Below, piece by piece: positions 24,164 through 28,264 of a stretch of 43,496 bases of DNA; positions within the stretch are counted from its first letter, which is position 1; each line of letters opens with the position of its first letter. Both the position numbers and the translations under genes were made by a program. Under the pieces are notes generated by a model, which saw only the letters and a list, made by a program, of their open reading frames with translations, ran no database searches and was not told where the DNA came from. This stretch comes from a virus (taxonomy: Duplodnaviria > Heunggongvirae > Uroviricota > Caudoviricetes): the IMG/VR virus record IMGVR_UViG_2718218360_000017; one strand, 5' to 3'.

Positions 24164-26110
24164 TCATGCCGCAGTGTCTGTGCTGTTCACTTCCACCGCA
24201 ATGCTGTCTATCAGTACCGGGTAAGTCGCACCTCTGGTAATGTCTGTCACATGCAGTTTATCCGCCGCAAAGGCACTGACCGGTGACTGCGTCAGCGTGA
24301 ACGGTGTACCATCCTGACCATCAATAACCGGCGTCACCTGAAGGCTGTTATTCCCGGCAAAGCGGAAAGCCAGCGCATGCCATTCGTTATCAAATGCGCC
24401 AAAGCTTCCCAGTTTCAGGTTGTTTGTCGCCACTTTCGCATTGTGGTACATCACATTCAGGTCTTTTGCATCTGTCTGGATGTAGAACGCTGCCAGCAGG
24501 TTATTCCCCCCGTCTCCGGTCAGGGCAACGCCCTGTGGCAGTGAAGATACCGGCCAGTAAAACGCCATAACATACTGGTTCGCAGCCAGCACTCCCGAAA
24601 CCTTAAAGCGGCAGCGAATCTGCCCCCCTTTCTGTAACAGAGCCGCACCGTTGCCCGCGGCGTACTCCAGCACCCAGCTGCTTTTACCGGCTTCCTTGGT
24701 CAGCTTCACTGCCTTACCTCCGGTTCCCTCCGCATCGCTGACCACTTCTGCCCTGCCGCCACTGGCTGACCATCCCTGTACTTTCAGGCTTCCCTCTGAC
24801 TCGCTGGCAAGGTAAGAGAGCAGTGTTGTGACGCCTGTGGCTTCTGCACCGGAAGGCGATGACGGGCGCACCTCTGATACTGTCGATGATGCCCCCGCGT
24901 TTAGCGCCACTCTTCCCGCATGGCGCAAAATCGCCGTTGCCAGACGGTCGGAAATAATCCCACGGCGTGCCCAGGCGCTGAAATGGCTCGCCCTGTCCTG
25001 TGACGTCCAGGTGGCTGAGCTGTCACGCCATTTCGAACCGTAATATCCGATACCCGGAATGTCCGGGTCTTCTTCCGGTTTGTTCGTCGGCACATTCACC
25101 CCGTTCTCATCCGTCATGAACGGTACGAAATGGATATTCTTTTCCGTTTTGTTTTTGTAGCTGCCGTACACCGTCTGGTACGAGGATTCGTTCTTCTGCT
25201 TCCAGAAATACGTCGTGTCCCCGCATATCCAGGGAACACCGTCAGCAGAGCCACCGACGCACTGACCTGCCATATCCGCCAGGTCTGCACGGAATTTATC
25301 AACCTGCGCACCAAACTGTGCTGCGTGATTTGCCGGCGTACCGCCAAAATCAAATTCCCCCTGCATCCACACCACGGCAAACAGCACATTTTTCGGATTC
25401 TTCTTCAGTGCTGCTTTTGTTCGACCGATAAGGTCCTTATACAGCGGCTTGTCCACACCCCAGCGGGTTGAATTCTCCGAGGCACCACTCGCGTCACTGT
25501 ATGTGCCATCAGCTCCGGTGGTGAACGCTGAACCACCACGACAGCACGGAACCAGCAGAATGCCCGCATTCGCCGGTATAAACGGCAGCAGTTTTTTGGC
25601 GATATGCAGCCCCTGCCCCACGGTTCCGTACTGCCCCTTTGACAGGTCCGCTTTCGGATGGTTAAGGCGGCTCATGTCCTGCACATCATGCAGACAATGG
25701 TCCGCCGGAATGATGTCGTTATATTTACAGGCGACACCGCCCGGTGTCACCGTACTGCGACGCGCCAGCTGCTTAATGCGCGGGTCCGGACGGTCATATG
25801 TCTCCGGCAGCGGAAGGCCTTCACCATACGACATGCCGTTTGACTGCCCTGCCAGAACCACAACAAAGTAATACCCGGGGTCGCTGGTGGCGCTGATTAC
25901 TGCACCTTCTCCACCTGTCGGCTTCACCACAACAGGTGTGCTCACATCACCTTCTGCGACAATCGCCTGAATAAGTGCTGCGCCATCATCCGTATACGAA
26001 GAAAACGGCCCACCATATGGTTGCCATCCTTCACGAATTTTTTGCGCAAGTGCATCAGCAAGGTCTGACGGCGACGCCGCCCTGACAACATCATAATGTT
26101 TAAATGTCAT
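24164..26110 (-). CDS. nanS-p: Prophage sialate 9-O-acetylesterase (NanS-p-like, SGNH/SASA family)
   Basis: 648 aa; GQSN catalytic motif (VVLAGQSNGMSYGEG); position between Q and the lysis genes. Confidence 0.8.
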   Translation of the reverse strand: MTFKHYDVVRAASPSDLADALAQKIREGWQPYGGPFSSYTDDGAALIQAIVAEGDVSTPVVVKPTGGEGAVISATSDPGYYFVVVLAGQSNGMSYGEGLPLPETYDRPDPRIKQLARRSTVTPGGVACKYNDIIPADHCLHDVQDMSRLNHPKADLSKGQYGTVGQGLHIAKKLLPFIPANAGILLVPCCRGGSAFTTGADGTYSDASGASENSTRWGVDKPLYKDLIGRTKAALKKNPKNVLFAVVWMQGEFDFGGTPANHAAQFGAQVDKFRADLADMAGQCVGGSADGVPWICGDTTYFWKQKNESSYQTVYGSYKNKTEKNIHFVPFMTDENGVNVPTNKPEEDPDIPGIGYYGSKWRDSSATWTSQDRASHFSAWARRGIISDRLATAILRHAGRVALNAGASSTVSEVRPSSPSGAEATGVTTLLSYLASESEGSLKVQGWSASGGRAEVVSDAEGTGGKAVKLTKEAGKSSWVLEYAAGNGAALLQKGGQIRCRFKVSGVLAANQYVMAFYWPVSSLPQGVALTGDGGNNLLAAFYIQTDAKDLNVMYHNAKVATNNLKLGSFGAFDNEWHALAFRFAGNNSLQVTPVIDGQDGTPFTLTQSPVSAFAADKLHVTDITRGATYPVLIDSIAVEVNSTDTAA

Positions 26111-26589
26111 TATTCCTCCCGGCCGGGATAGTGTATTAAATCAGATATGGAGTGGGCTGTAGTCCGGAAGCCTGAATGACACACGGGGACTACAGCCCAA
26201 GAAATGAAAAAAGGCCACGCAGTTGCGCAGCCTGATAAACCCTGGTTAAAATCCACACGATAACAACACAACAATATCAGTATCTCATGCTATTGCCCGA
26301 ACCCATTCGGGCATTTTTTACCCATAAAAAATGCCCCTCCGGAGAGGGGCATTTTTGCATGCACATTCTTTTTCTTGCATGGTGCCGGGTGCCTCCCGGT
26401 GAATTCAGTATCAGCACCTGAATCCGCGATTACCCCATATACCTGGTTGCTGATTGCCCCTCCGCACAGGGGGATTCACCATGCCAGTTTCTTTTAACAA
26501 ACTCCCCGCAAACCAGACAACAGTCAACCGCCTGAATTGTGAGACATTTAAAAAAAAGGCCCGCAAAAGCGAGCCAGGGAAAATAAGTG

Positions 26590-26665
26590 TGGCGCGTTGT
26601 ACTGGATTCGAACCAGCGACCTGGCGATTATGCGTCGCTCGCTCTCACCACTGAGCTAAAGGGCC
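26590..26665 (-). tRNA. tRNA-like sequence with CAU anticodon (Ile2/Met-like); acceptor stem does not pair by eye, so possibly a pseudogene/remnant
   Basis: Minus strand GGCCCTTTAGCTCAGTGGTGAGAGCGAGCGACGCATAATCGCCAGGTCGCTGGTTCGAATCCAGTACAACGCGCCA: canonical D-arm, CAU anticodon loop and GGTTCGAATCC T-arm, but the 3' strand ACAACGC is not complementary to the 5' GGCCCTT. Confidence 0.5.
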
Positions 26666-26697: not shown

Positions 26698-26728
26698 CCG
26701 AAATAAAAAACCCGCTCAGTGGCGGGTT
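26698..26728 (-). terminator. Intrinsic terminator downstream of the lipoprotein moron; near-copy of tR'
   Basis: Minus strand aacccgccactgagcgggtt followed by ttttttattt. Confidence 0.6.
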
Positions 26729-26805: not shown

Positions 26806-27231
26806 TTAAAACTCTGCTTTCATTTTATCCGGGAATTTTTTATTTGCAGCATAATAACTACCAAGTATATAAGCGTTCATTTGCTGCTCTACATCAACCC
26901 GACATGCAGCACTAGAACAAGCACCACTGATAAGCCCAAAAGAACTCCCTTTAGCAGAGAGATCAGCTTTAATTTCCTCTACAGTGTTTTTCCCCATAGC
27001 AACTACACACCCTGTAACAATATATCTAGCCTTCACATCATCCATGCTAAGGATAGTGGTTTTCGCAATTTTGCTGTATCCATCATTTTTATAAACATCC
27101 ATGGCAAACGCACGGCAATCTGTATAATACGGACTTGCTTTAACTTGCGAATACTCAGGTAATTTCATACCTGCACAACCAACTAAACAAAAACCTATCG
27201 CTGCTATTAATACCTTTTTCATTACACTCAT
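26806..27231 (-). CDS. Cys-rich lipoprotein of unknown function (moron)
   Basis: Signal peptide with lipobox MKKVLIAAIGFCLVGC; AT-rich; own promoter-like AT-rich leader; bracketed by two terminators. Confidence 0.7.
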   Translation of the reverse strand: MSVMKKVLIAAIGFCLVGCAGMKLPEYSQVKASPYYTDCRAFAMDVYKNDGYSKIAKTTILSMDDVKARYIVTGCVVAMGKNTVEEIKADLSAKGSSFGLISGACSSAACRVDVEQQMNAYILGSYYAANKKFPDKMKAEF

Positions 27232-27511: not shown

Positions 27512-28264
27512 TTATCTTGTCACTTTTCTCAATTGTGTCTCTGCATATGCTTCTTCCTGCCAGCACTTTGTAACCAGTTTATCAATGATATCTGCATATC
27601 CTTTGTACCACTGATAATCCGTCAGGGCAGGTACCAGCTTCTGGACATGATGCCGCGCCAGTGTGGTTGGTAAACGGCTAAACCGGTTACCATTGCAACG
27701 CCCACAAATCTTATAAACAGGCGTACCATGAAGCCGGGTTCTTTTTTCATCCAGGACAATACCTTTACCCTTACACCCTCTGCACGCTGTGCTGACTTCT
27801 CCCTTACCATGACAATGCTGACATAGTTCCTTCACCCACTCTTCCTTGATAACAGATTCCCCGCTTCTGGAGTGTTTCACCACCTCGCGCAATACATTAT
27901 GAAATCCAGTACCAGCACAATGCTCACAGCGAGCCTTACTTGCCGCAGACCTGGAATAATCAGCAAAGGCAAAATTCACAAGGTAAGGGATGATCTGTAA
28001 CCGGGTTTCTTCACTCAATTTATTCAATGTCGGGTTATCCAGTGCCATCGCGTAATTGAGCAGACCTTCAATCGCAAACTGAGGATCCTGAACACCAACT
28101 TTTGCCAGGAATAAGGCAAAACCCAGTGGTGCTTTCGACTGCACCATCCCCTGCGCAGCAATTACATCCGTAATTGTTAAACCACCAGAGCCTGTCGCCG
28201 GTGCGTCATCACTCAGTTTTGGAGATTTTGGGGAGTAATATTTTGGTAAGGCTTCAAGGTTCAT
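27512..28264 (-). CDS. Q: Late antiterminator Q
   Basis: 250 aa with repeated Cys motifs (CEHCAGTG, CQHCHGKG, CRGCKGKG, CGRCNG); directly upstream of pR'/tR'. Confidence 0.8.
   Translation of the reverse strand: MNLEALPKYYSPKSPKLSDDAPATGSGGLTITDVIAAQGMVQSKAPLGFALFLAKVGVQDPQFAIEGLLNYAMALDNPTLNKLSEETRLQIIPYLVNFAFADYSRSAASKARCEHCAGTGFHNVLREVVKHSRSGESVIKEEWVKELCQHCHGKGEVSTACRGCKGKGIVLDEKRTRLHGTPVYKICGRCNGNRFSRLPTTLARHHVQKLVPALTDYQWYKGYADIIDKLVTKCWQEEAYAETQLRKVTR

Follow-up and report, generated by a model that had tools for sequence, protein, structure and literature searches.

What is a sequence with three of the four arms of a tRNA, and with acceptor strands that do not pair, doing downstream of the Q antiterminator gene of a lambdoid prophage? 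The element is on the minus strand of the 43,496-nt stretch of DNA analysed here (the window). We conclude that it is very probably a non-functional chimeric tRNA gene, ileZ'-'argO, which was made by a deletion, had a single origin and was spread by homologous recombination.

The 7 kb around the fusion match E. coli E2863 (NZ_AP018802) with 100% identity. In minus-strand order, KilA-N and DUF968 genes are followed by Q, a 141-aa ORF, a hairpin, the fusion, a second hairpin, the sRNA STnc100, an esterase-like gene and the lysis genes (Table 1). The preliminary description of this DNA had placed the element downstream of Q, where Stx-type phages carry the tRNA array ileZ-argN-argO, and this placement is correct. 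The 141-aa ORF between Q and the fusion behaves as a moron of unassigned function; the identical protein (WP_000115362.1) is encoded in E. coli IHE3034, where it precedes an ileZ-Thr-Gly array. STnc100 is convergent with the anti-GcvB sRNA AgvB and is overlain by a RefSeq pseudo-CDS ('hypothetical protein', 26351-26494) that is probably an annotation artefact. The esterase-like protein 3' of this sRNA pair has a DUF1737-SASA-DUF6645 architecture, in which SASA denotes sialate O-acetylesterase, and resembles the NanS-p esterases of Stx phages. The locus is thus the late-operon "moron" region that has been described for EHEC prophages and is known for regulatory sRNAs (PMC4104026).

Table 1. Features of the chimeric tRNA locus and its surroundings, in window coordinates; tRNA position n corresponds to window position 26666-n.
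Feature	Position	Strand	Basis or remark
Chimeric ileZ'-'argO tRNA pseudogene	26590-26665	-	76 nt; sequence GGCCCTTTAGCTCAGTGGTGAGAGCGAGCGACGCATAATCGCCAGGTCGCTGGTTCGAATCCAGTACAACGCGCCA
ileZ-derived part, tRNA positions 1-49	26617-26665	-	Equals ileZ of Nil3, IHE3034 and Sakai except at position 33
U33-to-G substitution, anticodon loop CTCATAA to CGCATAA	26633	-	Position-by-position comparison with ileZ
Crossover interval CTGGTTC, tRNA positions 50-56, common to ileZ and argO	26610-26616	-	Position-by-position comparison
argO-derived part, tRNA positions 57-76	26590-26609	-	Last 27 nt of the fusion equal the 3' end of Nil3 argO
Local match to the Rfam tRNA family (RF00005)	26600-26659	-	37.3 bits, model positions 7-64 of 71
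Q-type antiterminator gene, start of the late operon	27512-28264	-	Pfam Antiterm PF03589, 1.5e-51; RefSeq annotation of E2863
141-aa ORF between Q and the fusion	26806-27231	-	No Pfam match
Terminator-like hairpin 5' of the fusion, after the 141-aa ORF	26709-26728	-	Same hairpin precedes ileZ4 in Sakai Sp10
Terminator-like hairpin normally 3' of argO	26558-26575	-	Identical downstream of argO in Nil3
sRNA STnc100	26320-26513	-	Rfam, 144.7 bits
Anti-GcvB sRNA AgvB, convergent with STnc100	26258-26319	+	96.5 bits
648-aa esterase-like protein, 3' of the sRNA pair	24164-26110	-	Domain matches

The D-arm, CAU anticodon loop and T-arm that had been read from the minus strand are all there, at exactly the coordinates first given for them. 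The D-stem is GCTC/GAGC, the anticodon loop CGCAUAA holds the anticodon CAU, the variable loop has 5 nt, and the T-arm (GCTGG-TTCGAAT-CCAGT) is accompanied by an encoded 3' GCCA. These three arms are fully paired in the Rfam alignment, which spans model positions 7-64 and has a G-U as the first T-stem pair. The strands of the acceptor stem, 5' GGCCCTT and 3' ACAACGC, form only two of seven pairs (G1-C72 and T7-A66), bearing out the lack of complementarity already noticed by eye; the same comparison gives 7/7 pairs in each of ileZ, argN and argO. A G stands at position 33, an anomaly absent from the preliminary description. Position 33 is a near-universal U in tRNAs, and every intact ileZ examined has T there. 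That description had also allowed for a few mis-read bases. This can be ruled out: the same sequence recurs in many independent complete genomes and is thus not a sequencing error. A chance resemblance to a tRNA was rejected on the strength of the Rfam score and the close match of positions 1-56 to phage ileZ.

The two ends of the element derive from two different genes. Positions 1-56 equal phage ileZ at 55 of 56 bases, the sole mismatch being position 33, and positions 50-76 equal argO at all 27. The ileZ-derived part contributes the 5' acceptor strand, the D-arm, the CAU anticodon arm, the variable loop and the T-stem base G49, and the argO-derived part supplies the rest of the T-loop and T-stem, the 3' acceptor strand, the discriminator G and CCA. 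The join lies within CTGGTTC, because it is bounded by G49, which is specific to ileZ (argO has A), and by G57, which is specific to argO; the sequence spanning it is GGTCGCTGGTTCGAATCCAGTACAACGC. Strain EC571 has an ileZ allele with TTCGAAT, and if the parent ileZ had this G57 allele the crossover interval widens to positions 50-64 (26602-26616, 15 nt). Downstream, the identity runs on without a break into the argO flank, the terminator and the STnc100 region of Nil3.

The Nil3 array (AM051322, locus L002) consists of ileZ (1541-1616), argN (1624-1700) and argO (1714-1790). Alignment to these three genes, as had been proposed, resolves the element into ileZ 1-49 and argO 57-76. Relative to Nil3 it lacks 174 bp, which comprise the 3' end of ileZ, the whole of argN and the first three-quarters of argO. 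The window does not contain a single 15-mer of argN. When Stx and lambdoid phage records were searched by BLAST, the 106-bp query was split every time into two pieces, which stretch over 274-280 bp of the record and fall on features annotated as ileZ, argN or argO. The two suggestions of a tRNA pseudogene and of a recombination junction therefore describe the same thing, a fusion of ileZ' to 'argO that was joined in the conserved T-arm and has an unpaired acceptor stem.

Gene-finding programs treat the fusion accordingly. ARAGORN reports no tRNA in the whole 43.5-kb window, and none in a 300-nt segment with thresholds lowered to 80% (-ps80); the fusion is never called at any relaxed threshold from -ps to -ps70. 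A lone 'tRNA-Asn' call at 70% is spurious and lies elsewhere in the segment. No intact tRNA with a high score and a paired acceptor stem, which would have spoken against the preliminary description, was found; the Rfam match is local (E-value 2e-4 over the whole window, 8e-6 over a 1.6-kb region). The intact relatives score over the full model (positions 1-71), with 72.5 bits for ileZ, 70.1 for argO and 50.4 for argN. A search for further tRNA relics nearby in the E-value mode of Rfam recovered only this local match and terminator-like noise. The minimum free energy of the fusion 76-mer is no better than that of shuffled sequence (z-score -0.97, vs -4.03 for intact ileZ). ARAGORN calls the element once either of its acceptor strands is repaired in silico, and G33 by itself does not abolish a call, so the decisive defect is the unpaired acceptor stem. 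No alternative partner for either acceptor strand is found in a usable position within ±600 nt.

Arrays of this kind follow Q in Nil3 (AM051322), Stx2a_WGPS8 (AP012540) and phage 2851. The fusion resembles them in its site in the late-operon leader after Q, in its ileZ-like 5' 56 nt and in its 3' 27 nt and flank, which are those of argO. It differs in being one fused 76-nt unit, not three separate and complete tRNA genes in ~250 bp, and in having no argN, an unpaired acceptor stem and G33. The array ileZ4-(argN relic)-argO4 of Sakai Sp10 (NC_002695, 1940705-1940957) has an upstream flank of the same lineage as that of the window, and its argN is degenerate, being neither annotated nor called by ARAGORN. 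In contrast to the fusion, this array still has ileZ4 and argO4 as separate, intact genes with U33, and its decay came through point mutations in argN rather than through a deletion that fused genes. Relics resembling argN also lie between intact tRNAs at 2282-2381 of locus L030 (Sakai, NC_002695) and 2192-2264 of locus L003 (IHE3034). They keep the acceptor ends CCGCCA.../...TGGCGGTCCA around a scrambled interior and are likewise neither annotated nor called. tRNA decay is frequent in such prophage arrays.

The fusion is of a known kind, the hybrid gene that results from recombination between tandem tRNA genes: its halves come from different genes of the array, the intervening DNA is gone and the junction lies in shared sequence. 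The E. coli tyrT-tyrV duplicate of the su+III studies reportedly behaves in this way, with recombination in shared sequence removing the intervening DNA and leaving one hybrid. Its partners are said to be near-identical isoacceptors, so that the hybrid is functional, whereas the fusion combines two different acceptors (Ile2 and Arg), which leaves the hybrid with an acceptor stem unable to pair. A search for ileZ, argN and argO in one literature collection returned nothing relevant and no description of an ileZ'-'argO fusion.

The starting state would have been a tandem array of ileZ (tRNA-Ile2, CAU), argN and argO downstream of Q. A deletion then very probably joined ileZ to argO within the homology of their T-stems and T-loops, which is 7 nt or, with the TTCGAAT allele, up to 15 nt. 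The simplest route would be slippage or recombination over this short homology (7-15 nt) in the T-arms of the tandem genes, and the product retains the 5' acceptor strand of ileZ and the 3' acceptor strand of argO. As a second lesion, U33 has changed to G in the anticodon loop. From this one founding fusion, copies were very probably transferred among prophages via homologous recombination in the conserved tRNA sequences.

Of 5,426 complete E. coli genomes scanned with a 72-nt query across the junction, 161 contain the fusion; its copies are all ~100% identical and annotated tRNA-Met. The carriers include O157:H7, O111:H8, O121:H19 and O45:H2. A synthetic chimera with U33 has no perfect full-length match in the 5,426 genomes (the best, at 98.7%, is the G33 form), and no sequence in them reaches 99% against an intact ileZ that was given G33 synthetically. 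IMG/VR, scanned for exact matches with either base allowed at position 33, yielded 22 contigs, all 22 with G33. G33 is thus fully linked to the fusion, with no U33 fusion and no G33 intact ileZ, and the fusion therefore goes back to a single founding event. Twenty of the 22 IMG/VR copies are identical over the 76 nt; the other two (contigs L011, 4488-4563, and L020) have an extra G-to-A in the conserved GG of the D-loop (CAGTGGTG to CAGTAGTG), consistent with continuing neutral decay. In the copy of E. coli CAU16175 (L007, ~1553-1562), five nucleotides (CCACA) are duplicated right at the 3' CCA end; compared with the window, the downstream terminator has diverged and 28 nt are inserted. None of the GenBank phage records in the collection searched has the fused form. 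The junction scan gave no match among the GTDB species-representative genomes, a set that has one genome per species and says little about E. coli strains.

The fusion occurs in several surroundings. Its upstream genes vary among Q with the 141-aa ORF, a DUF1133 Q-like gene, an ORF6N relic and a DNA methyltransferase. Among the IMG/VR contigs, 13 combine the upstream flank of the window with a Nil3-type downstream flank, six have Nil3-type flanks on both sides, and three join a Nil3-type upstream flank to a downstream flank of a third type. The fusion has spread between prophages, and the presence of the same 76 nt behind several unrelated upstream modules indicates that homologous recombination transferred it.

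This diversity bears on a different account of the join, which we consider improbable. The fusion could come from two different phages, in which an upstream module of phage A ending in ileZ was joined illegitimately in the T-arm to the argO and downstream module of phage B; this route would give the same non-functional product as a deletion within one array. The upstream flank of the window (the hairpin and ATTTCGGAATTAATTACGG...) is indeed of a lineage different from the Nil3 type while the downstream flank is that of Nil3, and the 141-aa ORF is shared with IHE3034 and its ileZ-Thr-Gly array. The six contigs with Nil3-type flanks on both sides have the identical chimera in the form of the plain deletion product, just as a simple 174-bp internal deletion would give it. 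Sakai Sp10 has the window-type upstream flank together with ileZ-(argN relic)-argO, so a deletion within an array was possible there too, and G33 in all copies points to one founding event, which makes the present flank diversity secondary.

The near-invariance of the 76 nt despite differing flanks can be read as constraint, and as such counts against a pseudogene. Across all copies of the fusion the flanks diverge by 14-34%, but within one flank lineage they differ by only 0-1%, like the fusion. The invariance gives no evidence of special constraint, since the flanks are equally invariant within a lineage and recent recombination predicts the same.

We also regard it as very doubtful that the fusion RNA is stable and has been kept by the prophage for a new role. 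With its intact anticodon arm and T-arm it might in such a role be a decoy or sponge for a tRNA-targeting nuclease (an anticodon nuclease) or for a modification enzyme (TilS), or else a signal for RNA processing beside STnc100 and AgvB in the leader of the late operon. Such a role would fit a sequence that hardly varies at all among 161 genomes and 22 viral contigs across several flank contexts, keeps three of four arms intact and has a terminator-like hairpin on either side in a region known for regulatory sRNAs; if true, it would account for the persistence of an identical copy in many STEC lineages and several prophage backbones. Against it, the fusion is no more invariant than its flanks within a lineage, an invariant D-loop G is mutated in two copies, no promoter-like site lies directly upstream, the fold is unremarkable by its z-score, the copies offer no covariation to analyse, and the structure is fully explained as a deletion accident. 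Sakai Sp10 (AgvB1 locus; Tree et al. 2014) was considered as a source of Hfq-CRAC expression data and rejected: it has intact ileZ4 and argO4 and no chimera.

As a chimeric pseudogene made by deletion, the element would have lost tRNA function, judging from its structure and general tRNA biology. RNase P, the CCA-end enzymes and the aminoacyl-tRNA synthetases recognise the coaxial helix of acceptor stem and T-arm. With its acceptor strands unpaired, the fusion RNA should be unable to form this stack for RNase P processing and aminoacylation. TilS makes tRNA-Ile2 read AUA, and the fusion RNA would also lack the acceptor-stem determinants for this enzyme. If the fusion is transcribed at all, it is most likely as a passenger of Q-antiterminated late read-through. 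In E. coli E2863 the loss of the fused gene is buffered, since the genome contains an intact ileZ at another site, along with a further copy of the fusion.

RefSeq nevertheless labels the fusion 'tRNA-Met' in every genome that holds it. The PGAP feature is 71 nt long (26590-26660), begins at tRNA position 6, omits most of the 5' acceptor strand and has no pseudogene flag. This misleading label should be read as a truncated covariance-model match, not a gene. That the fusion is a functional if unusual tRNA-Met or tRNA-Ile2 is scarcely credible: the PGAP call in each genome and an Rfam score above the family gathering score of 29 favour it, but the acceptor stem has two of seven pairs, position 33 is G, the Rfam match is local with the acceptor stem outside it, ARAGORN rejects the sequence at relaxed thresholds, the halves trace to two different genes, and the PGAP feature is itself truncated at the 5' end.

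The fusion is an ordinary decay product of small biological importance, one more case in which the tRNA "moron" region of a lambdoid prophage has decayed and been reshuffled by mosaic recombination. No fewer than 161 complete E. coli genomes bear its 'tRNA-Met' label, which inflates tRNA counts, and such a false tRNA-Met could mislead arguments on codon usage or tRNA supplementation in STEC prophages. The junction and the linked G33 together form a unique marker of single origin, which can serve to trace the exchange of late-region modules among the prophages of O157:H7, O111:H8, O121:H19, O45:H2 and other STEC.
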